Assembly (NCBI GenBank): GCA_963663865.1
Contig: OY760686.1
Span: 3,088,590 to 3,152,589, forward strand
Length of the DNA stretch: 64,000 nt
Direction: 5' to 3'
Source of the DNA: Spirochaetota bacterium
GTDB lineage: Bacteria > Spirochaetota > UBA4802 > UBA5550
Made by a program: the position numbers and the translations under genes
Part shown: piece by piece, positions 21,858-64,000 of the stretch
How positions within the stretch are numbered: the stretch's first letter is position 1
Layout of the letters: every line of letters begins with the position of its first letter
The notes under the pieces: model-generated
Databases searched by the model: none
Told to the model about the DNA's origin: nothing
Seen by the model: only the letters and a program-made list of their open reading frames with translations

Positions 21858-21944
21858 GACGCCTCCGTCAGTTAAACGGCCGGCGGAAGGCAGGAATAAA
21901 ATTTAAAAAAATAACTCGACATACTTCATGCCGGGTTTCTTCTG

Positions 21945-23093: not shown

Positions 23094-23096
23094 TTC

Positions 23097-31598: not shown

Positions 31599-32402
31599 AT
31601 GAATCTGCTAAGACAAAGCTTTGCCCCCATCAGTGAAAGCGGATGGGATGAAATAAACGGTCTCGCAAAAGAGACGCTGACTGCCAACCTTTCAGCGAGA
31701 AGATTCTGCGATGTTGAAGGCCCGTTTGGAATCAACTATACCGGCGTCAACCTCGGAAGGCTTGAAGTCCCTCAGGGCCAGAAGAAGGACGCTGTCCAGT
31801 ATGGAATCAACAGGGTGCTTCCTCTTGTAGAAGCCAGGGTGAGCTTCTCAGTAAATATCTGGGAACTCGACAATGTGGAACGCGGAGCGAAGGACATTGA
31901 ACTTGATGCCGTAGTTGAAGCGGCAAAGAAGATGGCCGCCTTTGAGGAAAGCGCCGTATACAACGGCCTTCCTGAAGCCGGCATTGAAGGACTTAACGGC
32001 TCAGCTGACGCTTCAAGGACAGTTGAGATGTCCCTCGAGAAGGACAGCGTCATTGACTCCATCAGCGAAGGACTCAGAATTATGCGAAGCAGCGGAATTG
32101 ACTCCGAGGCTAACCTTATTGTTAACCCGGAACTGTGGAAGTTTCAGGCGCGGATGTTCCCAGGCGGGAACCTCGGTGCTTCAATTAAAAAGCAAATTGG
32201 CGGTTCGATAATCTATTCCGATACTGTTAAGGGCGCGCTGCTTGTTTCAAACCGCGATGGCGACTTTGAACTCACAATCGGACAGGACTTTTCAGTAGGC
32301 TACCACAGCCACGATTCAGAGAAGGTCAACCTCTTCCTGAGCGAATCCTTCACTTTCAGAATAATAACGCCCGAAGCGCTTGTGGCATTTAAAATCAAGT
32401 AA
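31599..32402 (+). CDS. family 1 encapsulin shell protein (HK97 fold, linocin/CFP29-like)
   Basis: Strong similarity, aligned from memory, to Thermotoga maritima encapsulin (RSFAPLTE..W.EID, VDVEGP, LDNLERG, VSERGGDF.L..GQD..IGY, PEAL); 16 bp after cargo gene. Confidence 0.85.
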   Translation: MNLLRQSFAPISESGWDEINGLAKETLTANLSARRFCDVEGPFGINYTGVNLGRLEVPQGQKKDAVQYGINRVLPLVEARVSFSVNIWELDNVERGAKDIELDAVVEAAKKMAAFEESAVYNGLPEAGIEGLNGSADASRTVEMSLEKDSVIDSISEGLRIMRSSGIDSEANLIVNPELWKFQARMFPGGNLGASIKKQIGGSIIYSDTVKGALLVSNRDGDFELTIGQDFSVGYHSHDSEKVNLFLSESFTFRIITPEALVAFKIK

Positions 32403-36061: not shown

Positions 36062-38200
36062 ATGAAGCCTCTCGAAAAATTAACGCAGGTTGTAACCCCC
36101 CTCCCAAGAGGAGGGTTCCTTGTAGACACCCCGCGTGGATATATTCAGTTTGGGATTCCGCCAGAAACCATTAAAGACACAATGATGCTGCCGCAGGGAA
36201 CCCCGGGTGTTTTTGTCCTTCCTGTACACTTCTTCAACTGGATGAAGGGAATAAGCGTAGCTGAGCTTGAATTTCCGATATATTACAACTTTTTCATCCG
36301 AAAGAAAAAAACAGTGATAATCTGCCTGAAAAAAGAGACAGACAGGCTTATAAGCGTCCTGTCAGAGGCCCTCTTCGGACCCGACGAACCCGAGCTCAAA
36401 GATGATTACATTCCAGATTACACAGAAGTCCCTGACATAAAGCCGGAGATGGATTATTTCCGCACAATGGAGCTGAATGACGTGGTCGAATTTCGTCATT
36501 TCACCGACGGAAAATGCGATATTGACAATGTGAGTATCAGTATCGACAGCGCGGACAACTTCACTGTATCTATTGACGGTAATGTTATAGCCTTTGTGCC
36601 AGGAATTATCGAGTACAAACCAAGATATCTCATTGGAGAAAGGCTTGCCGAGCCATTCAAGCCGCCCCTGTTCGCGGTAACCTGTCTCGGTTCCAGCTCC
36701 GGATTCGATCCGTCGGCAAACACTTCCGGTTTTATTATATGGCTGAATCACCGTGGAATAATGATCGATCCTCCTGTTAATTCAACTGAATGGCTTCTTG
36801 ATTCTAACGTCAGCCCGAAACACATTGATTCAATTATTCTCACACACTGCCACGCCGATCACGACGCCGGCACATTCCAGAAGATACTTCAGGAAGAAAA
36901 GGTGACGGTGTATACGACAAAGACAATATTGAACAGCTTTCTCAGAAAGTACTCGGCGCTGACAGGAGTGGACAGTTCATTCCTCCTTAGACTTTTTACA
37001 TTCGTCCCTCTTGAACTGGGTAAGCCTTTTTTCATCAATGACGGATGTTTCGACTTTTTTTACACGCTTCACTCAATCCCGACCATCGGTTTCCGGCTGT
37101 CGTTTCAAAAAGACTCGCTCACCTACTCCTCCGATCACAATGCCGACCCCGAGCTTCACAAAAAGCTCCTCGATGAAGGCCGCATTTCGCGCAAGCGCTA
37201 TGACGAGCTTCAGGCTTTCCCCTGGGATTCAACTATCGTCTATCACGAATCAGGGGTTGCCCCCCTTCATACGCCTGTTGAGTACCTCAGTTCGCTCTCC
37301 GATGAAAAGAAAAAGAAAATCACTGTTTACCATATACCCGAGTCTTCTATTCCTGAAAAAGCAAAGTTGACTCCCGCCCGATTCGGAATTGAAAACACCT
37401 ACTATTTTAAAACAGAGACCTCTGACTTTGACGGAGCGTACCAGCTGCTGAACATTCTCAGGCATATTGACTTTGCCGAAGACATGCCTATCAGCAAGGC
37501 GCAGGACTTCCTTAATCTCGGGTTTACTGAGAATTTCAGCAAAGGGGCAAAGATCATTGAGAGCGGCACCGTAGGATCACGCTTTTTTATCATCCATTCG
37601 GGCAATGTCCTTATAAAAAGCAAAGACGGCAAATACACAAAGGTGTTGGGACCCTATGACTATTTTGGCGAAACTGCCCTTCTCATCAACGAGGAGAGAA
37701 CAGCTGACGTAACAGCGCTAACCGAGGTGGCCACCTATTCCATCAGAAAAGATAAATTTCTGTCCTTCATCAAAGGCACTGACTTTGAAAAGACATTGAG
37801 AAACCTTGCCAGAATACGAGACCTTGAAGCCTGGGAGACATTATCCTCAAGCCGCGCAATAACCTACTGCACCCCCACGCAGAGGAACCACCTTGAATCC
37901 ATTCTTGAACCGGCAGCCTTTCAGGCAGGACACTGCCTTATTGCAGAGGGTACTCTTATTGATTCAATCTACATTATCAGAGAGGGCCGAATAGCCATGC
38001 TCGAACAGGGAACACTTTCGCTGATGCTGCGCAAAGGCGACCTTGCTGGCTCCACGGCGGATTTCTACGAGCGCCGTCCGTCAAATGCAAGCTTCTACTG
38101 TGAAGACGATGTCAAACTCTACAGGATTCAGAGCGAGCACCTGTTTCCGTTTCTTGAAAAAAATCCGGGCCTCTATATGAAATTCAGATATTACTCTTAA
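36062..38200 (+). CDS. multidomain protein: N-terminal unknown domain + metallo-beta-lactamase-fold hydrolase + two cyclic-nucleotide-binding domains
   Basis: MBL motif ILTHCHADHDAG; two cNMP-binding-like modules (FGETALL...RTADV and RKGDLAGSTADFY). Confidence 0.65.
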   Translation: MKPLEKLTQVVTPLPRGGFLVDTPRGYIQFGIPPETIKDTMMLPQGTPGVFVLPVHFFNWMKGISVAELEFPIYYNFFIRKKKTVIICLKKETDRLISVLSEALFGPDEPELKDDYIPDYTEVPDIKPEMDYFRTMELNDVVEFRHFTDGKCDIDNVSISIDSADNFTVSIDGNVIAFVPGIIEYKPRYLIGERLAEPFKPPLFAVTCLGSSSGFDPSANTSGFIIWLNHRGIMIDPPVNSTEWLLDSNVSPKHIDSIILTHCHADHDAGTFQKILQEEKVTVYTTKTILNSFLRKYSALTGVDSSFLLRLFTFVPLELGKPFFINDGCFDFFYTLHSIPTIGFRLSFQKDSLTYSSDHNADPELHKKLLDEGRISRKRYDELQAFPWDSTIVYHESGVAPLHTPVEYLSSLSDEKKKKITVYHIPESSIPEKAKLTPARFGIENTYYFKTETSDFDGAYQLLNILRHIDFAEDMPISKAQDFLNLGFTENFSKGAKIIESGTVGSRFFIIHSGNVLIKSKDGKYTKVLGPYDYFGETALLINEERTADVTALTEVATYSIRKDKFLSFIKGTDFEKTLRNLARIRDLEAWETLSSSRAITYCTPTQRNHLESILEPAAFQAGHCLIAEGTLIDSIYIIREGRIAMLEQGTLSLMLRKGDLAGSTADFYERRPSNASFYCEDDVKLYRIQSEHLFPFLEKNPGLYMKFRYYS

Positions 38201-38212: not shown

Positions 38213-39130
38213 TCAGGAAAGCAGACCATCCTCTACTACAACGAGGACGCCCCGTTCCATCAAACGCCGTACCGGCCCGTAGTCGGTCACTGGATTTCCT
38301 ATTATGCTGACGTACTCCAGAAACGGCATGTTTTCCAGAACAGAAATATCTTCTATCATATTAAAACTGATATCAAGCTCCTTGAGATTCTTTAACCCGC
38401 CGAGCGGATCAATATTTTCAATCCTGTTATCTGAAATATACAGAGACTCGAGTTCAATCAATTCCGCGATTGGACCTGTTCGTATGATCCCGTTGCCGGA
38501 TAAATTCAGGGCCGAAATATACGGGCACTTTTCCAAACCCTCCAGAGAGTTTATTCCATAATCAGACAGGTCGATTTCGCCGTCAAGGTTCAGCAAGTCC
38601 GCATCAGAGAGATCAATATCCAATCCGCCTACAAAGTACCTGTGCAGGGCCTCAAAAAAGCTGATTCCGTCATCTTCTTCATCCTCTTCAAAATACAAAT
38701 CGTCATCTTTAATATCTGAAGCTGCCTGCTCTGCATAGCCGAAGTCAGAGGCGGAATAGCTGAACGATTCCTCAAAAACTACCGGCTCGGCCTGGCTTTC
38801 ACCTGGCGAACCGGAAGGCAGATATAACGCTGCAAGCCTCGCCAGACCCTCCGAATCCGATTTTTCCATCAGCTCATCAGCTTTTTTATGAATAAATACA
38901 TATCTGTCAGGATGGAAACGCCTTACAGCGAGGCTGAAGAGCTTTTGAGCGCTGATATCATGACTGCTTTCATCCCCGGGAAGATAATATCGAAGCCTTC
39001 TAAAATCTTTTCGCTTGTAAGAAGCAATAATATCTATCGTGGTTTTCTTAAGGTATTCCGGTGTTACTCTGTTTTTAAGCTCTTTATAATAAAAATCGCC
39101 TGATTCTGAGAATTCAGCCATTAAGGACAT
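38213..39130 (-). CDS. cytoplasmic leucine-rich-repeat protein with degenerate N-terminal J-domain
   Basis: LRR units LxxLxLSxNxI x5-6 at C-terminus; AQKLFSLAVRRFHPDR resembles J-domain helix II + HPD; acidic linker; no signal peptide. Confidence 0.55.
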   Translation of the reverse strand: MSLMAEFSESGDFYYKELKNRVTPEYLKKTTIDIIASYKRKDFRRLRYYLPGDESSHDISAQKLFSLAVRRFHPDRYVFIHKKADELMEKSDSEGLARLAALYLPSGSPGESQAEPVVFEESFSYSASDFGYAEQAASDIKDDDLYFEEDEEDDGISFFEALHRYFVGGLDIDLSDADLLNLDGEIDLSDYGINSLEGLEKCPYISALNLSGNGIIRTGPIAELIELESLYISDNRIENIDPLGGLKNLKELDISFNMIEDISVLENMPFLEYVSIIGNPVTDYGPVRRLMERGVLVVVEDGLLS

Positions 39131-39165
39131 CCTCCATAAAAAAAACAGTAAAACCGGGAAGCCGG

Positions 39166-40149
39166 TTACTTTCGGGATTTTTTAAAAAAATCTTCGAACA
39201 GGTTCCTGTCAATTTTAATGAGCCTTGTCCGTATTTCAGTAAGATTTTCAAAGGAGTAGCTCTGAAACTCGAAGTAGTCAATGAGCCACAGGTACTTGTT
39301 TATAAGGCGGGGCACAACATTTGATTCCTCAATCTGGTCTCTGTTCATTCGCTGATAGTTCATTTCCAGCCTGTAAATATCGTCCTTAATGGATTCGACC
39401 TGCCTCTCCTGAAGGTTTTTTCTCACATAGAACACATCCTCAATAAATCCGTAGACAGGAATCCATTCCCTGACATCTCCCTGACCGGGACAACGGGCGA
39501 GGACAATCTCCTTAAGGCGGACTACCGGCTCGGCGGTTATCATGCTTAAATCAATATCAGAAGGATTTACAAAGAATGCTTCCTTAAAAAGCCACAGACT
39601 TTTGGGGATATCGCCTGTATGGAAAAAAGCTTCGCCAAGAATTGAAAGAAGCCTGGCATTGCTGTTATACGACCTGCCGGCATATTCGAGGGTCTCTATT
39701 GCCTTCTCATAATCGCCCAGCTTAAGAAAGCACTCGCCCAGGTTGAGAAGTAAATCAAAGTTGTCTGCGGTCTCTTCCTGATTCAGAAAAGCCTTTCGGT
39801 AATTTTCAGAGGCTCTGTAAAAAACATGTTTCATCGCGGCCCGATAGGCTGAAGAGTTATACATGCGGGATTCGGCCGCGTACTCTTCAAAAGCCTTCCA
39901 CTCCGCCATCAGGAAGTCAGCTGTTTTTTTTCCCTCAGGTAATGACTCAAACTCCGGCACCCGGTTCTGCCAGAAGCGGGACGTCCTGTAAGACTCTATC
40001 AGGCCCGGATAGTCAGGATTGGCGGACATCAGCCTGTCCAGCAGAAGCACGGCCTGCCCGAATCTGCCTTCCTCAATAAGCGAATAGACCTCTCCGGCTG
40101 AATTCAGCACCGGATCATCCGAAAATGTCATCTGACCATTATTATCCAT
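39166..40149 (-). CDS. TPR-repeat protein
   Basis: Multiple 34-aa helical repeats with W/L/G/Y/A/F/A/P pattern. Confidence 0.6.
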   Translation of the reverse strand: MDNNGQMTFSDDPVLNSAGEVYSLIEEGRFGQAVLLLDRLMSANPDYPGLIESYRTSRFWQNRVPEFESLPEGKKTADFLMAEWKAFEEYAAESRMYNSSAYRAAMKHVFYRASENYRKAFLNQEETADNFDLLLNLGECFLKLGDYEKAIETLEYAGRSYNSNARLLSILGEAFFHTGDIPKSLWLFKEAFFVNPSDIDLSMITAEPVVRLKEIVLARCPGQGDVREWIPVYGFIEDVFYVRKNLQERQVESIKDDIYRLEMNYQRMNRDQIEESNVVPRLINKYLWLIDYFEFQSYSFENLTEIRTRLIKIDRNLFEDFFKKSRK

Positions 40150-40150
40150 A

Positions 40151-42214
40151 TTACGATTTAAGCCTGATTAAGTTTCCCCAGCCTTCATTCACTTCCTGAT
40201 GTGTAAATACTATAACCTGTCTTTCGCCGGACACCCTTGCAATTTCCTCCCTGAGGCGCTCCGCCCTTTCTCCATCCATATACAGAAAAGGTTCATCCAG
40301 AATCAGAGGAAGGGGACATCCCGAGGAAGAGAGAAATTCCGTAAGTGCAATTTTCACAGAAAGCACCAGATTGTATGTCGCTGCAGGGTTTAACCTGTTA
40401 ATAAAACCGCTGCTTGCAAGCAGAGCGTCAACTGTTTTTTCATCTATTGAATCTTCGAGCGAACGCCCTGTTAACCCGTTATATATTTTGAAAGCACTCC
40501 CGACAAGACGGTCCAGATTCATCTTTTCCCTTGCATGAACCGTCTCAGCAAGACTGTCCAGAACAACCCTGAAAGCCCGTCGTCTCCTTATTGAGCTTTC
40601 AAGCCGATTCTCCAGGTATTCTTTTCTTTCTGTCAGAATACCCAGTTCGTCCGTCTTTTCATCTTCCGAGGCAATTTCCGCATCAATGCTGTCAACCAGT
40701 TTGCCCTTTTCGCGAACTGACCTTTCGGCTTCCGCAAGTTCTGACCGGACATCCCTTATACGCTGCTCAATCGCCGACGAATCAACTTCAGCGGACATAC
40801 CCTCGTTGACAGCAGAAAGGCCAGCCCGGATGTCAGCTGACAGCTTCCTGATTGAAGAGGTCAGCTTCCTGATTTCATTTACCATGCCATCCGCTTTCTC
40901 TTCAGCATCCAGAGCCTTCCTTGCCTTTTCAAGCTCGTTCATTCTTTCAGAATACTCTATAAAGTCTTCAAAATAGTGAACCAGAACTTCATAGAGCCCT
41001 CCCGGCCCGATATTATCTGAAGGCATGTCCTTTTTATCCAGCAGTTGACTGGCAAATTCAGCTTCAATCTCCCTGCCTCTTCTGCGAAGCCCCTCAATCC
41101 CCGGAGGCCCCGAACCGTTTTTCCACAGAAACCAGATAGCCGGGAAGAGCAAGACCGGAACCGCACCCATGACGGCTGTATGAAGTACATCAATTTTACC
41201 GAGAAGAAAACCCGAAAGAGCAAATCCCCCGGCTGCGAGAAAGATGAATGCTAAAAGTCCCGAAAAAAGACGTTTCTTAAGTAAGGCTCTTGAAGTCATT
41301 TCCTCAACGAGCTCATTATTTTCCCTGTATTCGTTAAACAGACCCTGCAGGTTATCAAGGCCTGTAACATCCCTGCCGCGGAACTGGCTGAAATTTTCAT
41401 CAATATCTTTTTCAATTTTTTTTGCAGTCGCCGCCCTGTCTTTCACAACCGCCAGCCTTTCCTCAACCGCCTTTAACTCTTTTTTCTGGTTTTCAACTTT
41501 TACCGCTTCATTATGAAAAGCTCGCAGCCGATCAATCACCTCATTAAGCCTTGAGATATCATCGTTGAGTCCGGCAATCTCCTGTTGAAGGACAGCCTTT
41601 TCTTTTTCAAGCTTTGTTGTTTTAAGCTGTTTGATACGAATGAGCTCACAATCTCTCTGAACGAGCTTGAGTTCCGACGCAAGCTCATCGTTAGCCTTAT
41701 CAATTCTTTTTTCACCTTTACCGCCAGAGGTAAACGAATCTAACAGCTTCTGATACAGCGATGAATAGCCATGATACTCCCCGGAGACGAGCGACCGGAC
41801 AGCATTGTAGTCAAGAATACCGGGCATGTTGAGTTCGGAAGCCGAAGGCATGAAACATGCGGTTGTATAGCTCCACCTGTCAATGCCGGCATCAAAAACA
41901 GCGCCATAGGCAGTGCACTCTGAAGGCAATGAAGCTTCAGACAAACAATCACCATCCTTCCAGCGCATCTTGAGGGCTGCCCCGTTCTCCTCTTTTTCAT
42001 GCATAAGTTCGATGTCCAGGCCAAGTGACTTCCAAACAGCTTCATCAAGCAGCCCGTCCCGGTCACGCCGCCAGATTGAGTCAATTAAGGACATTGCAAT
42101 GAGCGTCTTGCCGGAGCCGTTCCCGCCCTTTATTACGGAAAGCCCCCTGTCAGGTTCAAGTACGGCGTCTTCCGAAAGAAATTTACTTTTTATCACGCAT
42201 CTGCCGTACCGCAA
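40151..42214 (-). CDS. SMC/Rad50(SbcC)-like ABC ATPase with central transmembrane hairpin (SbcE/YhaN-like)
   Basis: Walker A GGNGSGKT at N-terminus, long coiled-coil, central hydrophobic hairpin LFSGLLAFIFLAAGGFALSGFLLG...AVMGAVPVLLFPAIWFLW, C-terminal signature/Walker B/D-loop LPLILDEPFLYMD...VIVFTHQ. Confidence 0.7.
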   Translation of the reverse strand: MRYGRCVIKSKFLSEDAVLEPDRGLSVIKGGNGSGKTLIAMSLIDSIWRRDRDGLLDEAVWKSLGLDIELMHEKEENGAALKMRWKDGDCLSEASLPSECTAYGAVFDAGIDRWSYTTACFMPSASELNMPGILDYNAVRSLVSGEYHGYSSLYQKLLDSFTSGGKGEKRIDKANDELASELKLVQRDCELIRIKQLKTTKLEKEKAVLQQEIAGLNDDISRLNEVIDRLRAFHNEAVKVENQKKELKAVEERLAVVKDRAATAKKIEKDIDENFSQFRGRDVTGLDNLQGLFNEYRENNELVEEMTSRALLKKRLFSGLLAFIFLAAGGFALSGFLLGKIDVLHTAVMGAVPVLLFPAIWFLWKNGSGPPGIEGLRRRGREIEAEFASQLLDKKDMPSDNIGPGGLYEVLVHYFEDFIEYSERMNELEKARKALDAEEKADGMVNEIRKLTSSIRKLSADIRAGLSAVNEGMSAEVDSSAIEQRIRDVRSELAEAERSVREKGKLVDSIDAEIASEDEKTDELGILTERKEYLENRLESSIRRRRAFRVVLDSLAETVHAREKMNLDRLVGSAFKIYNGLTGRSLEDSIDEKTVDALLASSGFINRLNPAATYNLVLSVKIALTEFLSSSGCPLPLILDEPFLYMDGERAERLREEIARVSGERQVIVFTHQEVNEGWGNLIRLKS

Positions 42215-43314
42215 AGCCAGTCCTCCAAATATATTTCATCGGATTTGATCAGTTTTAACGCTGAACAAACCTCTTCTTCCAGATTTACGTCCTCAGCAAG
42301 CCTTCTATCAACTGCAGCATAGAGGTCTCTTTCAATACAGTCCCGGCTGCCTGTTTCAGCAAGAAGAGCTCCAATCATCGGGATAGTCCTGTCTTCAAGC
42401 CTGAAGCCGCGGCAGAACTCCCCGATTTTTTTAAAAGTTTCTTCGCTTATCGGAAACTGCCTCACGCCTTCCAATATCACTGTGATTAAATCTTTTTCCG
42501 AGGATGAAGCCGCAAGTGACTCAATGATCTCCGTCGCGTTAAAAAGCCCGCTGCAGTTAAAAACCTCCTCCCTCAGCCTGACGCTGTTTACCGGCAGCCT
42601 CTTGAGCGCGGTCACTCCGCGCTCAGCGTTTATACAAAACGATACGACATATCTGTCGCCTCTTTCATCAGGCTTAACCGCCTCAGGACTCCCGGGATAT
42701 ACAGCCACTATTGAGTCAAACACCTTGAACATTTTAAAACTGTGATTCGACCCGAGGGCGTAAAATTCCATATCTGAAAGTCTGAACCCTGCCCGGGTTC
42801 TCTCCCTCTGGAAGTCGAAATTAAACAAACCCAGATGAAACCCGTCTGCCCCATTATCCCTCGGGGCGCACGCCGGGTTGTACTCGTCTGCCGAAGGAAC
42901 GCCGTAAATATTCAGAATCTGCCCCTGCTTCTCAAATCTGAACGGCCTTGGACAGACAGAATTTGCAAAGACGCATCCAGCGTTAAGGCTGTAAACAAAG
43001 GGTGCCGGCCGGCCGTCCGCCCCCTTCTCTCTTTTTCCCGGACAGTACGCGACAAGGACACCTTCTCCTGCAAGTTTTCCGAAAGCGGCCCTTACCTCAT
43101 CCTGCAGAGAACCGGCCGGGTCAGCGCTGTCAAACAGATCTCCAGCAAGGAGTAACACGTCATATTCTTCAGCAAGATGAGCGATGCGTTGAAAGGTTTC
43201 CATTCTCACTTCAGCGCTTATACCCGTCTGAGTGCAGTCAAGCCCCAGATGAAGGTCTGACGCAAGCATAATCCTGATATCTTCGGACTGTCCGTTCAAT
43301 ACGGGAACCTCCAT
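42193..43314 (-). CDS. calcineurin-like metallophosphoesterase, SbcD/Mre11-like nuclease (SbcF/YhaO-like)
   Basis: Start set at MEVPV; phosphoesterase motifs IMLASDLHLG and LLLAGDLFDS; 22-bp overlap with downstream ATPase gene. Confidence 0.7.
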   Translation of the reverse strand: MEVPVLNGQSEDIRIMLASDLHLGLDCTQTGISAEVRMETFQRIAHLAEEYDVLLLAGDLFDSADPAGSLQDEVRAAFGKLAGEGVLVAYCPGKREKGADGRPAPFVYSLNAGCVFANSVCPRPFRFEKQGQILNIYGVPSADEYNPACAPRDNGADGFHLGLFNFDFQRERTRAGFRLSDMEFYALGSNHSFKMFKVFDSIVAVYPGSPEAVKPDERGDRYVVSFCINAERGVTALKRLPVNSVRLREEVFNCSGLFNATEIIESLAASSSEKDLITVILEGVRQFPISEETFKKIGEFCRGFRLEDRTIPMIGALLAETGSRDCIERDLYAAVDRRLAEDVNLEEEVCSALKLIKSDEIYLEDWLCGTADA

Positions 43315-43437
43315 ATATATATTTATATTAACAGGGGCATTCACAGCTCCGGCAATATTTTTATTGACAAATACCCCTGAAAACAGGCCTCTACTCAAAG
43401 AGCAGATAATACACACAAAAACCGAGATATTAACAAC

Positions 43438-44463
43438 ATGGAACAAAATAGCAGAAACAAAAATAGATATCAATTCAAATACTTTAATACAGCCGGCAGA
43501 ATAGCACTTATTTTTTTAGCCGGCTTCTCTCTTTACCTTTTCATATCAACCGCAATGATAATATTCCTGACCAGACCCGCGAAGGAAGTGAAAATACCTG
43601 ATATAATCGGAGAACAGTTCACTGATATTTACAACAGCCTCCAGAGAAAAGGGCTTAAAGCCGATGTCAGCTTTTCAGATGTACATGATATTGACAACGG
43701 AATAATTCTCAATCAAAATCCGCAGGCCGGCAAAATAGTTCCAGAAGGCTCATCAATAAATCTGCTCGTCAGCAGAAGCTCTTTCCGGATTGACGTGCCC
43801 AACCTGGTCGGCGCTGAACTGCCGGTTGCTGTCAACAGGCTTCAGAACCTTCACTATCACGACAAGAGCATATCAATCTGTACGGGCGCCGTTTCGTATA
43901 TACCCAGCGATAAAAGCGCTGAAAATATCGTAATTGCTCAAAGTCCGGCTGCTGGAGAGAAAATAACGCCGGACAGAAAGGTAAACCTTCTTGTTTCAGC
44001 CGGCAAAACAGGTAACGATATGACCATGCCGGAAGTAACAGGCCAGTCGATTCACCTGTGTTACAATTTGCTCGCGGCAAAGGGCGTTTCAGTGCTTCAG
44101 GAAATAGTTCCCGTCTACAACATCGCCCAAAGCGGACAGGTTGCCTACCAGAAACCCGCTGCGGGAGCCCGGCTTACTGAAGGATACAATGTTGTCCTGG
44201 GAGTCAGCCTTTACGCATTAAAGGGGCACCCCTATACCGCTTATGAGAACTTCACATTTACACTGCCGGCCAATTCAGGCGAAGGAACATATCAGGTTGT
44301 CGTTGAAGACAACAGTTCGACAAGGACTATTTATTCCGCAAAGTTGACGTCAGGCGGCAAAATATCTGCTGTGTTCAAAAGGACAGGCAACGCAAAAATC
44401 ACAGTAATGAAAGACAAAAAGAGCATACAGGTAATCGGAATCAATGTTGATGAATACAAATAA
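43438..44463 (+). CDS. membrane-anchored PASTA-domain protein (3 PASTA repeats, no kinase domain)
   Basis: N-terminal TM helix then three about 65-aa repeats with P(D/N)(I/L)(I/V)G...A...L..G PASTA pattern. Confidence 0.6.
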   Translation: MEQNSRNKNRYQFKYFNTAGRIALIFLAGFSLYLFISTAMIIFLTRPAKEVKIPDIIGEQFTDIYNSLQRKGLKADVSFSDVHDIDNGIILNQNPQAGKIVPEGSSINLLVSRSSFRIDVPNLVGAELPVAVNRLQNLHYHDKSISICTGAVSYIPSDKSAENIVIAQSPAAGEKITPDRKVNLLVSAGKTGNDMTMPEVTGQSIHLCYNLLAAKGVSVLQEIVPVYNIAQSGQVAYQKPAAGARLTEGYNVVLGVSLYALKGHPYTAYENFTFTLPANSGEGTYQVVVEDNSSTRTIYSAKLTSGGKISAVFKRTGNAKITVMKDKKSIQVIGINVDEYK

Positions 44464-52527: not shown

Positions 52528-54240
52528 TCAAGGAGCTTTTGCACTATTTTCTGATATGATTTCAGTGCCAGCATATGGCCTTGCTGATTTCCTGTCAGAG
52601 AGTTTTGACTCGTGATTATACGGTGTTCCGGGTCGATATGTGTCGTAGGCGCTGACAGCAAAATAATAAAGCACTGTGTTCCTGAGCAATGGATAGGCCA
52701 GTAAACCCCGACTGTCTGCCCTTAGATTCTCTTCAATAACACGGTTGTCAAGCGACAGGTAGATATAATCTCCCTTTTGATAGGTATTATCAATCTTCTT
52801 TCCGTTTGCGAATGTGATAATCCCCTCATATCTGTCCGTTGATGTGCTGTAGTAAAGCCTGTAGCCCCCGATATCATAGTCAGTATTCTTTTTCCAGCGC
52901 AGTAAAACATTTTCATCACCGGCGGAAACAACCTCAAAAAACATCGGCGCCCCCGGCGGTAAATCCGGCTGGTACTTAAGCCTTATGTTTGACAGCTCGG
53001 GCGCACTTTTTCCGTCGGGTGAAACAGCAAGATTTGCTCTCCACTGATAATATCGTCCCCTCAGAGGTTTTTTATCCTCCCCAACCGTTTTAAAAATCTC
53101 TTTCTGACTGTTGGAGATACGGTACCACCTGGGTTGATTGTCTTTCTCAGCGAACAGGCTGTCTGATGTGCGAAATTCCATCCAGATAAAGGTTCCATCC
53201 GGTAATTTCTCATCCCAATCAAAAGAGACGACCCTGGTTCCAAAGTCATTAAATGAATATACCGGGCTTGTTACGGTTCCGCCGGCATTTTTGGGCTCCC
53301 TGCCATTTAGTTTCCGTGGAGCAAAAGCTGTTGTTTTTATCTGATATCTTTCTGCTGAAACAGCAAGAGGCTGAAGGCTTATTTTCAACTCATCAATAAG
53401 ACCGCAAAACCCCCTGCCGATTATAGCCGGAGGAAAATCTCTGTTGATAACAGCCTGATCTGATACAACTCCAAATCTCGGCGTGTAAGGCGCGGTGTCA
53501 GGTGTGCCGTCCGCAGTTAAATATTGAGTTTCCTGTTCTTTCCCGTCAAGGTACGAAGACAGCCTTCCGTCAGACCGGTCAAAACTCAAAACATAATGGT
53601 ACCATTTATCCGCATGAATCGAAGTGACTCCGTGATGCTCTACATTCTTTTTAAATCCGCTTTTATCCTCAAATATACCATAAAAACCGCTAAATACTCT
53701 ACCTCTGTGGAGCTTAATTTCTATCCCCTGAATACTTCCGTTTAGTGATCCAAGACGTGAAAAGATAACCGCGCCATCCCGGATAGTACTCGGATTAATT
53801 CTAAATTCTACAGTGAAAGACCCAAGATCGCCTGAATTGCCAAGCCACAGGCTTGCCTCGGGCTTTAGTACAACTTCATGATCGTCTCTATAGAAAAGTG
53901 CACATCCGCTGCCATGGGCCCCCTTTGCCTTCGTAAAACTGTATTCCGCCGATAGTACCTGATATCGTGATGTATCATCATGATGCAACGTGACAGGCTC
54001 CCCGTCAAAGGACAGTGACATATCAAGAACGCCCGATTCATACTGCTTTCCATAAGATATATCAGAAACAGTATATCGGACAGAATCGCTTTGGCCTCCT
54101 GCAGCCTGAATCCCGTTGAGACCGCTCTGAGGGACCCGGGCGAAGTGAACTGTGCAGGCTTTCCCATCCTCCGCAGCAGGATAAAGGGGAGACGCGAAAG
54201 GCATACCCCATAGTATAATAAGTATTAAAACCCTGCGCAT
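52528..54240 (-). CDS. secreted protein with concanavalin/LamG-like jelly-roll and FN3-like regions
   Basis: Start set at MRRVLILIILWGMPFASPL (signal peptide) to avoid overlap with rpiB; beta-rich, weak LamG-like pattern. Confidence 0.45.
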   Translation of the reverse strand: MRRVLILIILWGMPFASPLYPAAEDGKACTVHFARVPQSGLNGIQAAGGQSDSVRYTVSDISYGKQYESGVLDMSLSFDGEPVTLHHDDTSRYQVLSAEYSFTKAKGAHGSGCALFYRDDHEVVLKPEASLWLGNSGDLGSFTVEFRINPSTIRDGAVIFSRLGSLNGSIQGIEIKLHRGRVFSGFYGIFEDKSGFKKNVEHHGVTSIHADKWYHYVLSFDRSDGRLSSYLDGKEQETQYLTADGTPDTAPYTPRFGVVSDQAVINRDFPPAIIGRGFCGLIDELKISLQPLAVSAERYQIKTTAFAPRKLNGREPKNAGGTVTSPVYSFNDFGTRVVSFDWDEKLPDGTFIWMEFRTSDSLFAEKDNQPRWYRISNSQKEIFKTVGEDKKPLRGRYYQWRANLAVSPDGKSAPELSNIRLKYQPDLPPGAPMFFEVVSAGDENVLLRWKKNTDYDIGGYRLYYSTSTDRYEGIITFANGKKIDNTYQKGDYIYLSLDNRVIEENLRADSRGLLAYPLLRNTVLYYFAVSAYDTYRPGTPYNHESKLSDRKSARPYAGTEIISENSAKAP

Positions 54241-54253
54241 TTTATCTCCTGAA

Positions 54254-54682
54254 TCATTCGAGTTCCATAATTTTGTTAACTCTTTTCTCGTGCCTGCCTC
54301 CATCAAAGGGAGTATCAAGCCACCTTCTGACTATGCTGAAAGCGAGATCTTCTCCGATAACCCTTGCTCCCAGGGCAAGAACGTTTGAATTGTTATGCCG
54401 TTTAGCCATTTCAGCCATAAACTCATTAAAGCACAGGGCAGCCCTGATGCCCTTTACCTTGTTGGCAGCTATTGATATTCCTATTCCCGTACCGCAGATT
54501 ACAATTCCACAATCCGCCTTGCCTTCCGTTACAAGCCTCCCAACCTCGGCTGCATAATCTGGATAATCACATGATTCATTTGAATATGTACCGGCATCAA
54601 GAAACTCACATTCATCAAAGTTCTCCACAATCCTGGTTTTTAAATGGATACCGGCATGATCTGATCCGATGGCTATCTTCAT
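54254..54682 (-). CDS. rpiB: ribose-5-phosphate isomerase B
   Basis: MKIAIGSDHAG...CGTGIGISIAANK motifs. Confidence 0.85.
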   Translation of the reverse strand: MKIAIGSDHAGIHLKTRIVENFDECEFLDAGTYSNESCDYPDYAAEVGRLVTEGKADCGIVICGTGIGISIAANKVKGIRAALCFNEFMAEMAKRHNNSNVLALGARVIGEDLAFSIVRRWLDTPFDGGRHEKRVNKIMELE

Positions 54683-55159
54683 TTTTAACTCCTATACTTG
54701 AAATCAGACTACTTAAGCACCAGATTTTCATTTTCATATCTATTATTCAAACAGTTTATACGCCATATAATCATAATCCCGGAATTTTGCTATTTATAAA
54801 TGATTTCCGCATCTCATATTTGATTTTTTAAATGACCTGATGTGGAAAGTATAAACAAAAACCTACGATATAATTCGATATTTTTTTTGTTTTTTTATAA
54901 CCTGCGCTATAAAGTTATCAACAGATTACCAAAGTGAACATATTTAGTTTTTTGCACTGTATTTTCAACTTAGGTATCGATAGCATTATTAGAAACAGTA
55001 TCGGCACTATTCACAAATATTCCAACGACTTATCTTCTGATTGGATGAGCAGTTAAATGCTTATGTCTCATTCGTTTTCTTTCTGGATTCATCTTCAAAT
55101 CAGTCTGATTCAAATGAAATGAAATTAATTAACTCAATTAATTAACTGAAAATTTTTGA

Positions 55160-55200
55160 TTGTTGATAATGTTGATAACTTTGTTGATAAGTTGATAAGT
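55160..55200. repeat. four tandem TTGATAA / TTATCAAC(A/T) repeats (DnaA-box-like), a fifth copy at 54915-54923
   Basis: gattgttgataatgttgataactttgttgataagttgataag read directly; reverse complement gives TTATCAACA x3 and TTATCAACT, one mismatch from TTATCCACA. Confidence 0.6.
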
Positions 55201-55252
55201 AGGTATTGACAAATATTGCGATGAACTTACGTGGTCAAATTTCTATTACATT

Positions 55253-56017
55253 TTATCTGTTATTGAATATCCGCAAAGATCCCTTTAAAACGAGATCCGG
55301 CTCATTGATTACTTTAAAGGACATTGACGCAGCCAAAAAAAGGCCGTATCCACCTGTGACTACAATTTTCATTTCACTTCCGTATAAAAGCCTTATTTTC
55401 GAACAAACCCCCTCCATCATAGCGCCCCATCCATAAAAAATTCCTGCTCTAATCCCACTATAAGTGTTTTTTCCGATCAAATCAACAACCTCGGTGAGTT
55501 CTATGTCAGTGGGTAGATTTGCATCTATACAAAGGACCTTTAATGATGTACCTATTCCGGGTATTATCAGGCCCCCCGGGTAAAAACCGCTCTTTTCAAC
55601 AACATCCACCGTAATGGCTGTTCCAGCATCAATTATTATTGCAGAACCATGAGTACTATAGCATTCTTCAACAGCAGCAAGACGGTCATTCCCCAGTTTT
55701 TCCGGATTATCGTAACCATTTATTATGCTTGTTTTGCTGTCATGTGTGATTTCATATATAAGACCGCGATTCAGTCCAAGTTCGTTTTTGACATATTGCA
55801 AGAAATTCTTTTTTACGCTGCAAACAACAATACCGTGGATTCCACTTAGATCTGATCCATAATTTAATTTAAGCTCATTAACAAAAAGGGAAACAGCTTT
55901 CCCAGGACTGTCATTGAAGTAATATACATTTTTCCTGGAGATGGTTCCGTCTACAGTAAATTCCCCTGCTTTTAAAGAGGTATTCCCGGCATCAAGGACT
56001 ACAATCATATTACCCAC
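55253..56017 (-). CDS. coaX: type III pantothenate kinase
   Basis: MIVVLDAGNTSLK start and ASKHA motifs typical of CoaX. Confidence 0.85.
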   Translation of the reverse strand: MGNMIVVLDAGNTSLKAGEFTVDGTISRKNVYYFNDSPGKAVSLFVNELKLNYGSDLSGIHGIVVCSVKKNFLQYVKNELGLNRGLIYEITHDSKTSIINGYDNPEKLGNDRLAAVEECYSTHGSAIIIDAGTAITVDVVEKSGFYPGGLIIPGIGTSLKVLCIDANLPTDIELTEVVDLIGKNTYSGIRAGIFYGWGAMMEGVCSKIRLLYGSEMKIVVTGGYGLFLAASMSFKVINEPDLVLKGSLRIFNNR

Positions 56018-56261
56018 CTCGATATTTTTGCAACTTTCTGATTCATCCCTGTGTCGTTAATAGTGACATTACAGTTAGGGATATTTATATGTTAATTACT
56101 TCAATCGTTCTTTTATCAATTGTTTTGTGCGGCATTTTTGGATTCATGTTGCTAAGGTCGATCGCGGCCTGTAAATAATTATTTGCGTTTATTTGAAAAC
56201 ACTGATTGACTCATTTAATATTTTATTTTACTTTAAGCTATTATTTTTACTGGTGAATTAA

Positions 56262-56612
56262 ATGCAAAATGTTACCACTATAGCCTCAGCCGCTGCTCAA
56301 GTTCTTATGACTGTAATCCCTATTGTTGGGATTGTAATGGGATCACTCGTTGTTTTTTTCTATTTGCTCTGGCATCACAGGCAAAAGATGTTCATGATTG
56401 AAAAGGGAATATACAGAAAAATCGAGTTTGACATATCGACCTTCAGCCTTTTCACAGGGCTGCTGCTCATGAGTATTGGCGGCAGTCTGGTTGTATTTTT
56501 TATAATTAAATCTGGTTTTTCATATGGAGTTTTAAGCGGATTGATTCCATTTGCGATCGGATTAAGTCAGATAGTTTTTTTTGTGGTCAGATTAAGGGTA
56601 CATCATAAATAA
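56262..56612 (+). CDS. small membrane protein (2-3 TM helices)
   Basis: Hydrophobic segments; immediately upstream of ECF sigma gene. Confidence 0.45.
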   Translation: MQNVTTIASAAAQVLMTVIPIVGIVMGSLVVFFYLLWHHRQKMFMIEKGIYRKIEFDISTFSLFTGLLLMSIGGSLVVFFIIKSGFSYGVLSGLIPFAIGLSQIVFFVVRLRVHHK

Positions 56613-56616
56613 AACA

Positions 56617-57186
56617 ATGATTGTTGACAGCCTTTCTGATGAAAGCATTATCCGAAAAATATTACTGGGAGAGACAGCCCTTTTTAAGCTGATTGTAGAA
56701 AGATATCAGCAGAGAATCTTCCGGATGGGTATGAGGTTTTTTAAAAATCAGGATGAAGCCATGGATTTTACCCAGGACACCCTGATTCTCTGTTACAGGA
56801 AACTTGATACTTACAGGGGGCTTTCACCGTTCAAATACTGGATTTTGAAGGTTGCCTACAATGCAGGAATTAACAAGTTGAAATCAACAGTGATTGACAC
56901 CAGCCTGCCAGAGCAAAACGAACCTGTTGACATTTCAATGAAAGATCCTCAAAAGGAATACGCTGCCTCTGAATCGAGACGTATTATCCACGAGGCTATT
57001 AACACATTGCCGGAAAAATACCGTTTGTGTATAACCATGTTCTTCTTTGACGGCTTGAAGTTCAGGGAGATCAGTAAAATTACAGGCTATCCGGTAAATA
57101 CGATCAAATCGCATGTTTCAAGAGCCAAGCAACAGTTAAGAGCTTATCTGAAGGGTGCTGACATGGAGGAAACAGATGAGATGTAG
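56617..57186 (+). CDS. ECF-type RNA polymerase sigma-70 family factor
   Basis: Region 2 and region 4 helix-turn-helix motifs (F...D..QDT, GL.F.EISKITGYPVNTIKSHVSRA). Confidence 0.8.
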   Translation: MIVDSLSDESIIRKILLGETALFKLIVERYQQRIFRMGMRFFKNQDEAMDFTQDTLILCYRKLDTYRGLSPFKYWILKVAYNAGINKLKSTVIDTSLPEQNEPVDISMKDPQKEYAASESRRIIHEAINTLPEKYRLCITMFFFDGLKFREISKITGYPVNTIKSHVSRAKQQLRAYLKGADMEETDEM

Positions 57187-57634
57187 AACGGCAATGACTA
57201 TTTATGACAATCTCGACAATCACCGGGAGATACCCTTATCACTGAGCCATCATTTAAAAAATTGCCTGAACTGTAGTCAGGAAATATACTTAACTCAGAC
57301 AGTGATTGAGGACGGTGTACGGGAAGAGTCAATCGCATGCGAAGTTGATGTAACACGATCTGTCATGAATATAATTGAATTGAGTGAAAATCATGCAAAA
57401 TGCGGAATCTCCGGTTTAAAATGGATGTCTACGGGCATTCTGATACTGGGAAGCATCGTTTTCATTTCTTTTTCCAAGAACTTCACAATTTTACAGGATA
57501 TTTTCAGCTTCAACATTGAATTACCGCTATACATCGTGCTTGGCGTGGCGATTTCTCTCTATACTTCCTTTTTCGCCGGAACACATTTAAACTACATCAA
57601 TACCGACAAAATATCAAAATTTATAGAACGATGA
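57176..57634 (+). CDS. putative zinc-binding (ZAS-type) anti-sigma factor with C-terminal TM helices
   Basis: GGAGG RBS before ATG 57176; HLKNCLNC = HxxxCxxC ZAS motif; overlaps sigma gene end. Confidence 0.55.
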   Translation: MRCRTAMTIYDNLDNHREIPLSLSHHLKNCLNCSQEIYLTQTVIEDGVREESIACEVDVTRSVMNIIELSENHAKCGISGLKWMSTGILILGSIVFISFSKNFTILQDIFSFNIELPLYIVLGVAISLYTSFFAGTHLNYINTDKISKFIER

Positions 57635-57662
57635 GGACGGCCTTTGCCGTCCCCACTATACT
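57635..57662 (+). terminator. possible bidirectional terminator hairpin between anti-sigma gene and pckG
   Basis: GGACGG-cctttg-CCGTCC hairpin at 57635-57652 followed by moderately T-rich tract. Confidence 0.35.
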
Positions 57663-57665
57663 TTA

Positions 57666-59576: not shown

Positions 59577-59839
59577 CCGTATTTAGTATTTTCTGGAATG
59601 AACAAAGCGCACGAGAAAAAAAGATGTAAAGAGCAGGAATTATTTAATAACTTTTACTTCATGATTTTTTATTATCAAGCATAAAATAAATTTTAAACCT
59701 TTTTATTGAGCTTGTGTGATTTTGTTATTTCAATTCTATATATTATTTTTATGACTTTACACATCAATTGTATTTATGAACTTATGAATATTAAGTATAT
59801 TACAGATTAAAACTTATTCATTCTACTACAGGTGCTGCC

Positions 59840-60490
59840 ATGGAAGAATTGTTAGATTATATAATTGAAATACTGATGCCTCAAAGTGATTTTGTTCTTT
59901 ATATGTTTCTGCTTGTTTCAGCAATTCTTGAAAACATTATACCTCCAATCCCGGGTGATACGATTACGGCATTCGGCGCATTTCTTGCCGGTTCAGGGCG
60001 CCTGGGTTATGTTCAGGTTTTTTTAATTACAACTGCCGGAAGTGTTATCGGTTTTATGACGCTATTCTACTTTGGTAGAAAGCTCGAAAGACAGCATTTT
60101 ATTGAACGTGACTACCGTTTTTTTTCAGCGGCAAGTATAGTCAAGGCTGAGAATTGGTTCAGACGATACGGATACTTTGTTGTACTGATAAATAGATTCA
60201 TTCCTGGCATTAGATCCGTTGTTTCTCTCGTCTCTGGAATTTCCGGCTTAAAACCCGCTTATGTCCTTATCGTAAGTACAATCAGCGCTTCTATATGGAA
60301 TCTGATATGGATACAGGGTGGTTTTTTAATTGGAAGCGAGTGGAAATTGATCAAACAGAAAGTTAATAGCGTGCTTGAAAGCTACAGTTATTTTTTTATT
60401 ATTTTCGCGGCCTCTTTGTTTGCACTATTCGTTGTCTACAGAATGATAAGATTTTTTCTAAATAGAAATTTTTCCAGGAAGAACAAATAG
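59840..60490 (+). CDS. DedA/TVP38 family membrane protein
   Basis: IPPIPGDTITAFGAFLAGSG core motif, multiple TM. Confidence 0.7.
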   Translation: MEELLDYIIEILMPQSDFVLYMFLLVSAILENIIPPIPGDTITAFGAFLAGSGRLGYVQVFLITTAGSVIGFMTLFYFGRKLERQHFIERDYRFFSAASIVKAENWFRRYGYFVVLINRFIPGIRSVVSLVSGISGLKPAYVLIVSTISASIWNLIWIQGGFLIGSEWKLIKQKVNSVLESYSYFFIIFAASLFALFVVYRMIRFFLNRNFSRKNK

Positions 60491-60529
60491 AGCATTAACT
60501 ACAATTTTATACATTAGAACAAATCTCAT

Positions 60530-62017: not shown

Positions 62018-62034
62018 ACTATCACAAATAAGTC

Positions 62035-62679: not shown

Positions 62680-62710
62680 TTGTTCACTCCTGAATATAAA
62701 TACTCCTCCT

Positions 62711-62739
62711 ATAATACCCAACGCATTAGTAGATGTCAA
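62711..62739 (-). promoter_or_regulatory. near-consensus sigma70 promoter of lexA (TTGACA-N17-TATTAT)
   Basis: Minus-strand TTGACA (62739-62734), 17-nt spacer, TATTAT (62716-62711), about 30 nt upstream of lexA ATG. Confidence 0.45.
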
Positions 62740-63908: not shown

Positions 63909-64000
63909 TTTGTTTACTAACCGACTAATTTAACCGAAAATGAAATTATTATGAAATACAAATATAAATTTACAGCACTCTGCACATTAATCCTGGTAAC

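Follow-up and report, generated by a model that had tools for sequence, protein, structure and literature searches.

We analysed a 64,000-nt stretch of a Spirochaetota genome (GenBank assembly GCA_963663865.1, contig OY760686.1, positions 3,088,590 to 3,152,589; hereafter the window) and describe here a three-gene operon on its minus strand, running from 43314 to 39166. It contains a gene for an Mre11/SbcD-like (nuclease-like) protein, then a gene for a 687-aa Rad50/SbcC-like ATPase, and then a gene for a tetratricopeptide repeat (TPR) protein. We think it probable that the operon encodes a membrane-anchored Mre11-Rad50-like complex of the YhaO/YhaN type together with a TPR partner, and that this complex is a clamp or tether with weak, altered or no nuclease activity. 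The operon is not a new kind of system, as the hairpin-bearing YhaN superfamily is known as a kind. What looks new from the sequences is the compact subfamily, its translationally coupled TPR gene, and its degenerate nuclease motifs and ATPase signature.

In Bacillus subtilis, SbcE (YhaN) is an SMC-like protein closest to SbcC and is paired with SbcF (YhaO) (Krishnamurthy et al. 2010, PMC2811018). That study reports that SbcE has a "unique central domain" which is hydrophobic, insoluble and lacks CxxC, although the domain is not called transmembrane, and that SbcE affects double-strand-break repair and transformation (PMC2811018). We found this one functional paper and no mechanistic study of the YhaN/SbcE-like group in the literature, and our searches on membrane-anchored Rad50/SbcC-like proteins, COG4717 and AAA_27 found nothing relevant. 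An earlier sequence-only reading of the window had picked out the first two genes of the operon. Its observation was confirmed and its interpretation was partly supported; it missed the coupled TPR gene and the deviant signature motif.

A hydrophobic hairpin at the midpoint of the ATPase

Rad50 and SbcC are usually viewed as soluble machines with arms that join at a zinc hook. The 687-aa ATPase contains no CxxC and has two hydrophobic helices at its midpoint instead. The Kyte-Doolittle means over 19 residues reach 2.30 (from residue 320) and 1.86 (from residue 346), and in the rest of the ATPase they stay at or below 1.15. These segments map to 41120-41269, so the sequence-only reading, which had placed hydrophobic helices at about 41120-41270, was correct on this point. 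Its claim that they form a hairpin in place of the zinc hook also holds throughout the family.

We modelled the ATPase with AlphaFold2 from a family alignment of 66 members, which are 17-27% identical to the 687-aa protein. The model has a mean pLDDT of 81, with the heads above 90. Two long helices of matched length (166-274, 109 residues; 479-582, 104 residues) lead back to the heads. After the first of these there is a short break at a conserved FPQF motif, followed by helix 284-338, which runs continuously into the first hydrophobic helix. A four-residue turn separates the two hydrophobic helices, and after helix 343-367 come three shorter helices (372-395, 404-433 and 438-469). The pLDDT in the hairpin region is 66-78.

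The hairpin is a constant feature of the family. Paired hydrophobic segments occur at the midpoint in 66/66 aligned members (median relative position 0.48), both segments are at or above 1.6 in 58/66, and the family medians of the 19-residue means are 2.0 and 2.3. In the 15 residues on each side of the hairpin, the median number of Lys and Arg is 5 and 3.5 against 1 for Asp and Glu. The alignment columns of the hairpin keep their hydrophobic character and do not keep residue identity, and there are columns rich in Lys and Arg just before helix 1. This combination of hydropathy and basic flanks is what an anchor embedded in lipid, with its two ends in the cytoplasm, would be expected to show.

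The same pattern extends well beyond this family. A central hydrophobic segment is present in 105 of the 107 full-length relatives among the top 150 matches and in all 12 relatives of at least 800 aa that pass or match Pfam AAA_27. CxxC is absent from the full-length relatives save for one CLLC in a single sequence. With the hairpin in 105/107 full-length relatives, we consider it a hallmark of the YhaN-like superfamily and not something peculiar to this gene.

It could still be that the hairpin is not inserted in a membrane and instead serves as a soluble, greasy hinge for dimerisation, with two ATPase protomers contributing to a four-helix bundle. The discrete nucleoid foci of SbcE-YFP would fit with this, as would the description of the isolated central domain as merely "insoluble" (PMC2811018), and the AlphaFold2 confidence in the region is only moderate. 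However, the helices are about 23 residues long, with 19-residue means up to 2.3, a short turn and strongly basic flanks. Conservation of hydrophobicity and not of sequence is typical of lipid-facing anchors rather than of specific protein-protein cores, and the same pattern is found across phyla. For these reasons we regard a soluble hinge as very unlikely.

The ATPase head and its deviant signature

The sequence-only reading had described an SbcD-like gene overlapping a 687-aa ATPase gene, with Walker A at the N-terminus and Walker B and D-loop at the C-terminus, and both the map of open reading frames (ORFs) and the family alignment agree with it. In Walker A, G30, G35 and K36 are invariant (66/66) and position 37 is Thr or Ser. 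Walker B (LILDEP) is at residues 637-642, with P636 and D640 invariant, and 64/66 members have the D-loop Asp (D647). At position 641, directly after the Walker B Asp, 35/66 have Glu and 31/66 have Asp. In the H-loop region, R665 and Q666 are invariant, T671 is found in 62/66 and H672 in 49/66, and the H-loop itself (FTHQ) is at residues 670-673.

The ABC signature deviates from that of Rad50. Where Rad50 (3aux) has L-S-G-G-E, this ATPase has L-N-P-A-A-T-Y. Across the family the signature columns hold Asn in 41/66, Pro in 34/66, Ser or Ala in 43/66 and His or Tyr in 57/66, which gives [N]-P-[S/A]-x-x-[H/Y]. The element with the highest conservation outside the head has the family consensus YEFLLQYFEEY and lies about 45 residues past hydrophobic helix 2, within the AlphaFold2 helix 404-433. 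L411, Y414 and F415 are conserved in at least 90% of members.

In a Foldseek search of the PDB, the best match of the ATPase was Chaetomium Rad50 (7zr1, E 5e-12), followed by Smc5/6, MukB, LmuB and JetC. Matches of both proteins to curated family models were weak. Pfam SMC_N and AAA_23 for the ATPase and Metallophos for the nuclease-like protein were all below the gathering threshold, and the 687-aa ATPase had no match to Pfam AAA_27 (PF13514) at E<=0.1. Against NCBIfam Rad50 (NF003034) the ATPase scored 37.9 bits (E 5.5e-10; cut-off 700), and the nuclease-like protein scored 33 bits against TIGR00619 sbcd (cut-off 77.65). A CxxC hook or a canonical SbcCD pair would have been at odds with the sequence-only reading, and we found neither.

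A compact subfamily related to YhaN and YhaO

Word-indexed homologue searches were nearly blind to the ATPase family and gave 2, 3 and 7 matches. With an exhaustive HMMER search, 2671 proteins came up at E<1e-3; at E<1e-30 there were 100 cluster representatives, mostly of 690-730 aa. A genome scan seeded with YEFLLQYFEEY found at least 65 loci, all in Spirochaetota metagenome-assembled or single-cell genomes and many of them labelled Leptospirales; this count is a lower bound, as the variant in the window (YEVLVHYFEDF) falls outside the search pattern. We believe that this compact ATPase subfamily of about 700 aa, found only in Spirochaetota in the motif-seeded scan, is new. The gene order nuclease-like, ATPase, TPR was present in every scanned locus with enough flank.

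The more distant relatives are longer (805-1295 aa). All of them have the central hydrophobic pair and none has CxxC. Nine long relatives were tested with Pfam AAA_27, the YhaN-type N-terminal domain, and all passed its 22-bit cut-off; at E<0.01, 35/66 members of the subfamily match this domain. IMG names two relatives "uncharacterized protein YhaN".

The link to YhaN was drawn through a syntenic Bacillaceae locus. P0139, a 997-aa protein on a Bacillaceae contig, is encoded between a 407-aa metallophosphoesterase and a protein with an OB-fold and an HD domain, beyond which are Spore_YhaL and a PrsA-like rotamase. This is the yhaO-yhaN-yhaM-yhaL-prsA arrangement. P0139 has a hydrophobic segment at 473-518 (Kyte-Doolittle 2.69) and the signature LSQGT. 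The spirochaete ATPase profile matches it at E 3.8e-15. With hhalign, the same profile matched P0139 with 98.1% probability over the C-terminal head, while the match to the N-terminal head was weak. The nuclease profile matched the YhaO of the same locus with 98.4% probability (E 7.6e-15, 274 columns). The sequence-only reading had likened the pair to B. subtilis YhaO/YhaN, and these profile matches, together with AAA_27 matches in about half of the family, place the pair in the YhaN/YhaO (SbcE/SbcF, Pfam AAA_27) superfamily. We assume that UniProt predicts transmembrane helices in YhaN.

A nuclease-like subunit with an incomplete motif set

A profile of 43 nuclease-like sequences matched the Mre11/SbcD proteins of T. 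maritima, M. jannaschii, E. coli and P. furiosus in the PDB at E 2e-12 to 1e-9, with T. maritima as the best match (E 2e-12). The AlphaFold2 model of this protein was made from three sequences and has low confidence (pLDDT 62.6), so we used it for fold-level matching only; its top 35 Foldseek matches were all Mre11/SbcD. By profile and model, then, the subunit has the Mre11/SbcD fold.

We mapped the phosphoesterase motifs from two independent profile alignments that were in agreement, one with T. maritima Mre11 (TmMre11) and one, by hhalign, with Bacillaceae YhaO, and we counted residues in 63 sequences of the nuclease-like family. Motifs I and II are retained (Table 1). Motif III is degenerate, with the family sequence PGegEl aligning to PGNHDW of TmMre11 and to YGNHDY of YhaO. 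In the 63 members the motif III Asn never occurs at its column, the His at the next position occurs in 8 and E96 in 60. At position 165, which is the canonical motif IV His, 5/63 members including this copy have Asn. In motif V the first His is found in 29/63 and is lost here (S189), and H191 is found in 59/63. We also looked for a GNH hidden elsewhere in the protein; the only candidate was a G-x-N-H at residues 188-191, which aligns to motif V and was rejected. The YhaO-like partners of two long YhaN-like proteins (loci L068 and L069), which are from two other lineages, keep GNHD and GHxH, and therefore the loss of motifs is lineage-specific.

For P. furiosus Mre11 we take the Asp and His of motif I, the motif II Asp and the second His of motif V as the ligands of one Mn site. 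The motif II Asp would presumably be shared with the other site, whose remaining ligands would be the motif III Asn, the motif IV His and the first His of motif V, and we assume that the motif III His acts in catalysis. On this assignment the nuclease-like protein keeps one metal site and has lost the ligands specific to the other as well as the catalytic His, and we therefore think that canonical two-metal nuclease chemistry of the SbcD type is unlikely in this protein. The conservation of the remaining ligands argues against a wholly inert scaffold. The sequence-only reading had suggested DNA end-processing as one possible role of the complex. The Mre11/SbcD fold stands, and end-processing and nuclease activity are doubtful given the family-wide loss of the motif III Asn-His and the N165 and S189 of this copy.

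We consider it unlikely that the operon encodes a fully active membrane-tethered nuclease of the SbcEF type for DNA ends or hairpins, in which E96 or the frequent E94 would compensate for the deviant motif III. Such a nuclease would agree with the homology to Mre11/SbcD and YhaO, with the conservation of D20, H22, D59, H191 and E96 (each above 90%) and of His at position 165 in most members, with an ATPase in which Walker A, Walker B, D-loop and H-loop are all retained, and with the sensitivity of B. subtilis sbcE mutants to double-strand breaks (PMC2811018). Against this, the motif III Asn is absent in 63/63 and its neighbouring catalytic His is rare, the motif IV His and the first His of motif V are missing as well from this copy, YhaO-like partners in two other lineages keep all these motifs, and the nuclease-like gene evolves much faster than its TPR partner.

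The nuclease-like family also has two near-invariant Cys residues, C254 (62/63; at about 42553-42555) and C368 (60/63; at about 42211-42213). C368 is within a C-terminal W-L-C motif, and both are outside the phosphoesterase motifs.

The TPR protein and relative conservation

The TPR gene is directly downstream of the ATPase gene in every related locus with flank available. The recognisable part of the protein is two generic TPRs (about residues 135-198), and a PDB profile search finds generic TPR repeats only. There are 33 invariant columns in 41 sequences, and identity to the copy in the window is 46-62% across the family, compared with 17-27% for the ATPase. The median identities to the proteins of the window in related loci are 65% for S16, 63.5% for Rpe, 55% for TPR, 50.5% for PASTA, 32.6% for the nuclease-like protein and 24.4% for the ATPase. 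By these values the Mre11-like and Rad50-like genes evolve much faster than neighbouring genes, and the TPR protein is the best-conserved component of the operon and is under the strongest constraint of the three.

These observations could also be read as a sign of a role away from DNA, in the envelope or cell architecture, with a coiled-coil clamp, a pseudo-nuclease scaffold and a TPR adaptor acting on membrane or wall machinery. Both the catalytic site and the ABC signature are degenerate, the TPR protein is the most constrained subunit, and the operon has a conserved divergent neighbour that encodes a membrane protein with PASTA domains. Other proteins with a calcineurin fold, among them Vps29 and the B subunits of replicative polymerases, are inactive scaffolds, which we counted in favour of this role. 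However, all detectable homologues of known function (Rad50, SbcC, SMC and SbcE) act on DNA, and the synteny with PASTA-rpe-rpsP may merely reflect vertical inheritance. We therefore see an envelope role as quite improbable.

Core genome rather than defence island

The sequence-only reading had suggested that the complex could be anti-phage and that relatives might show a defence-island context. We checked the neighbourhoods of relatives and found core genome instead. PASTA-rpe-rpsP is divergently upstream in most related loci, and a cyclic-nucleotide-binding protein with a metallo-beta-lactamase fold is convergent downstream in several. No relatives were found in IMG/VR viral contigs, PLSDB plasmids or GenBank phages. 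The GC content of the operon (0.47) is inside the surrounding range of 0.45-0.51.

PADLOC gave partial matches of the ATPase to the LmuB (E 2.7e-13), PbeC and JetC models and no match for the nuclease-like, TPR and leucine-rich repeat (LRR) proteins, the last of which is encoded directly after the operon. Within about 12 kb the matches of neighbours were shared-domain matches only (cyclic-nucleotide-binding domains matched Pycsar effectors, PASTA domains matched PD-T4-6, and the CCA-adding enzyme matched Cas HD domains through its own HD domain), and the other neighbours are ordinary genes.

An anti-phage or anti-plasmid module, with an SMC-like sensor and a nuclease effector in the manner of Lamassu or Wadjet that intercepts incoming DNA at the membrane, is in our view highly improbable. 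The PADLOC matches to LmuB, PbeC and JetC and the presence of LmuB and JetC among the Foldseek matches point that way, but any SMC-like head with a coiled coil would give such matches. The ATPase and nuclease-like proteins are fast-evolving relative to their neighbours, and a membrane location would suit surveillance of DNA entry. On the other hand, the three genes hold a core-genome position beside PASTA-rpe-rpsP in the 65 scanned loci, there is no LmuA-type or other known effector, neighbours match PADLOC at the domain level only, no relatives were found in the viral, plasmid and phage sets, and the GC content is that of the surroundings. Given this fixed position and the lack of a mobile or defence association, the evidence favours a housekeeping operon that is inherited vertically within a group of Spirochaetota.

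Proposed mechanism

Our preferred reading, the membrane-anchored complex of YhaO/YhaN type, would work as follows. By analogy with all Rad50 and SMC proteins, the two long helices would pair antiparallel, which would put the hairpin at the tip. The hairpin would insert in the cytoplasmic membrane with both ends inside, following the positive-inside rule, and with a very short periplasmic turn. The ATP-gated head and an Mre11-like dimer would then sit about 15-20 nm below the membrane and clamp DNA. The hairpin and the membrane-proximal helices (284-315 and 372-469, including YEFLLQYFEEY) may replace the zinc hook in apical dimerisation or anchoring, and the Mre11-like subunit would dock on the head and the base of the coiled coil through its C-terminal helices. 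The TPR protein would be an adaptor to another cellular machine. The complex would thus be an ATP-dependent DNA clamp or tether at the membrane and not a canonical end-resecting nuclease of the SbcCD type; the incomplete Mre11-like motif set is the reason that we find a clamp or tether with weak, altered or no nuclease activity most likely. For the biological role we draw an analogy to the SbcE phenotypes and prefer chromosome maintenance or the tethering of DNA at the membrane, and this is the least certain part.

Several points weigh against this reading. The placement of the hairpin at the apex and its insertion in the membrane draw on hydropathy, flank charge, secondary structure and analogy, and SbcE-YFP was reported to form foci on nucleoids and at poles and not a uniform membrane signal (PMC2811018). 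For the nuclease-like subunit, one of the two metal sites appears to be kept (D20, H22, D59 and H191) with the loss confined to the specific ligands of the other site and the catalytic His, an assignment taken over from P. furiosus Mre11. The conservation of these four residues and of E96 shows that the active-site region is still under selection, and some hydrolysis may persist. Most members keep the motif IV His (49/63), so this copy is more degenerate than is typical. Finally, that the TPR protein links the complex to another machine is likely, and we infer it from synteny.

We can also formulate a bolder version, in which the operon encodes a repurposed three-protein membrane machine, passed on vertically in a large group of Spirochaetota and made of an apex-anchored ATPase, a pseudo-nuclease with one metal site and a TPR protein as its functional core. 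It would be a non-nucleolytic, ATP-gated tether of the inner membrane to DNA or another polymer, and the whole YhaN/SbcE superfamily, in all its phyla, would be membrane-anchored through an apex hairpin in place of the zinc hook. We put this version forward tentatively and are inclined to doubt it.

The widespread YhaN/SbcE-like sister group nearly always has a hydrophobic hairpin in the place of the zinc hook, which points to membrane-tethered relatives of Rad50. The spirochaete subfamily is a natural experiment in this respect because it combines a compact form, a degenerate nuclease site, a deviant ATP-sandwich signature and an obligate TPR partner. Confirmation of our reading would help to show how a DNA-end or DNA-clamp machine makes use of membrane anchoring and whether Mre11-like subunits can persist as non-catalytic scaffolds.

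Organization of the operon and its neighbourhood

The coordinates of the genes, motifs and flanking elements are given in Table 1.

Table 1. Genes, sequence motifs and flanking elements of the operon (positions in the window).
Feature	Position	Strand	Remark
Mre11/SbcD-fold (YhaO/SbcF-like) gene	42193-43314	-	373 aa from ATG 43314
Motif I, S-D-L-H-L-G (D20, H22); canonical D-x-H	43243-43260	-	retained; D20 61/63, H22 58/63
Motif II, G-D-L (D59); canonical G-D	43135-43143	-	retained; G58 62/63, D59 58/63
Degenerate motif III, P-G-K-R-E (K94, R95, E96); canonical G-N-H-D/E	43027-43041	-	profile alignments
Motif IV region, H-L-G-L-F-N, N165 at canonical His	42820-42837	-	hhalign to YhaO FHIALLHG
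Motif V, G-S-N-H; first His lost (S189), second kept (H191)	42742-42753	-	aligned to GHIH of TmMre11 and YhaO
Rad50/SbcC-like (YhaN/SbcE-type) ABC ATPase gene	40151-42214	-	687 aa
Walker A, GGNGSGKT (residues 30-37)	42104-42127	-	family alignment, 66 members
Hydrophobic helix 1 (about residues 316-338), basic stretch before	41201-41269	-	19-residue mean 2.30; continuous with AlphaFold2 helix 284-338
Hydrophobic helix 2 (about residues 343-365), basic stretch after	41120-41188	-	19-residue mean 1.86; AlphaFold2 helix 343-367
Conserved membrane-proximal motif, YEVLVHYFEDF (residues 411-421)	40952-40984	-	family consensus YEFLLQYFEEY
Deviant ABC signature, L-N-P-A-A-T-Y	40373-40393	-	phmmer alignment to Rad50 3aux
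Walker B and D-loop, P-L-I-L-D-E-P-F-L-Y-M-D (residues 636-647)	40274-40309	-	family alignment
H-loop region, R-Q-x-x-x-F-T-H (residues 665-672)	40199-40222	-	family alignment
TPR gene	39166-40149	-	327 aa; start codon 1 nt past ATPase stop codon
Terminator-like hairpin and T-run at TPR gene end	39152-39167	-	consensus scan alone
AT-rich divergent intergenic region, Mre11-like operon / PASTA gene	43315-43437	.	ORF map

The ATPase gene starts at a TTG with a ribosome-binding site (GGAGGA) upstream, its N-terminus aligns with homologues, and it overlaps the upstream metallophosphoesterase gene (ORF end 42193) by 22 nt. The start of the metallophosphoesterase is uncertain by about 10-15 codons, with gene callers on near-identical contigs giving 368-401 aa. 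We considered a start at TTG 43473, which would give a 426-aa protein with a hydrophobic N-terminus and a possible membrane anchor. This start was rejected because the added stretch is AT-rich intergenic DNA and would run 36 nt into the divergent PASTA gene, and because homologues begin within a few residues of ATG 43314. The terminator-like hairpin is the likely end of the operon. Promoter-like hexamers near the divergent intergenic region are consensus matches alone.

Divergently upstream are genes for a PASTA-domain membrane protein, rpe, rpsP, a KH protein, rimM, trmD, rplS and rnhB. The PASTA gene (43438-44463, plus strand) encodes a 341-aa membrane protein with three PASTA domains and neither a kinase nor a transpeptidase domain. 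The gene shares 20 nt with rpe and is divergent from the operon, an arrangement kept in most related loci; the operon and the PASTA unit could be co-regulated.

The 305-aa LRR protein (38213-39130, minus strand) comes directly after the terminator-like site. It has no counterpart in any of 65 related loci and occurs only in a 97%-identical contig. Pfam gives no match for its N-terminal half; an FHPDRY there recalls the HPD motif of J domains, and no J domain was detected. Convergent to the operon (36062-38200, plus strand) is a gene for a 712-aa protein with a metallo-beta-lactamase fold and two cyclic-nucleotide-binding domains. Its counterpart is downstream in seven related loci and directly after the TPR gene in six (the near-identical contig and five others). 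The Pfam list of the near-identical copy includes Anti-Pycsar_Apyc1, a cyclic-nucleotide phosphodiesterase fold, and its PADLOC matches are to the cyclic-nucleotide-binding domain only.

Elsewhere in the window, there is a gene for an encapsulin shell protein at 31599-32402 (plus strand; Linocin_M18, E 2.7e-77). On a near-identical contig (L002, 19807-20985) the encapsulin gene adjoins a 119-aa rubrerythrin-like gene, which suggests a nanocompartment with ferritin-like cargo. A full-length tmRNA gene is at 15018-15368 (plus strand; RF00023, 201 bits) and is the only Rfam family at gathering score in the window. For two overlapping ORFs of about 500 aa (18002-19582 and 19564-21066, minus strand) Pfam gives no match. 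These ORFs are in the highest-GC part of the window (18002-24743, GC 0.53-0.55), which includes a gene for a VWA-domain protein at 23097-24743. The last part of the window (54001-64000) has a GC of 0.37-0.40, compared with 0.41-0.55 in the rest, and includes a gene for GTP-dependent PEP carboxykinase at 57666-59576.

Comparison with known systems

Lamassu LmuB and Wadjet JetC share with this ATPase a generic SMC-like head and a coiled coil. The operon differs from those systems in having no LmuA/LmuC or JetA/B/D partners and in its fixed core-genome position, and we know of no membrane hairpin in the LmuB and JetC families. Calcineurin-fold Vps29 and the polymerase B subunits are a functional analogy only: they keep the fold, have lost part of the metal ligands and belong to larger complexes as subunits. 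The nuclease-like protein differs from these in that the four ligands of one metal site are more than 90% conserved, so it may not be completely inactive.

The operon also has features in common with SbcCD and Mre11-Rad50. The ATPase has the same Walker A, Walker B, D-loop and H-loop and probably the same antiparallel coiled-coil architecture, an Mre11-fold partner is encoded upstream in the same operon, and Rad50 is the best structural match. It differs in the hydrophobic hairpin in the zinc hook's place, in the loss of the Ser-Gly-Gly of the signature and of nuclease motif III, and in that both proteins score far below the Rad50 and sbcd family cut-offs.

B. subtilis SbcE/SbcF (YhaN/YhaO; COG4717) share the most with this pair. 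Both ATPases have a split Rad50/SbcC-like ABC head with a deviant signature and a Walker B followed by Asp or Glu and then P-F. Both lack CxxC and have a hydrophobic central domain halfway along the coiled coil. In both cases the ATPase gene overlaps, and is directly downstream of, an SbcD-like metallophosphoesterase gene, and this arrangement is kept in related loci. The spirochaete ATPase is much shorter, at 687 aa compared with 997 aa for the Bacillaceae orthologue and about 960-1000 aa for the YhaN type, and its helical arms are about 105-150 residues compared with the roughly 300 residues reported for each heptad arm of SbcE (PMC2811018). It has N-P-[S/A] in the signature where YhaN has S-Q-G, and it does not reach an AAA_27 match. 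Its partner lacks the motif III Asn-His that YhaO keeps. The third gene encodes a TPR protein and not YhaM, an OB-fold and HD exoribonuclease, and yhaM-like genes were found only in the Bacillaceae locus. The YEFLLQYFEEY motif, lastly, is specific to the spirochaete subfamily and sets it apart from YhaN.

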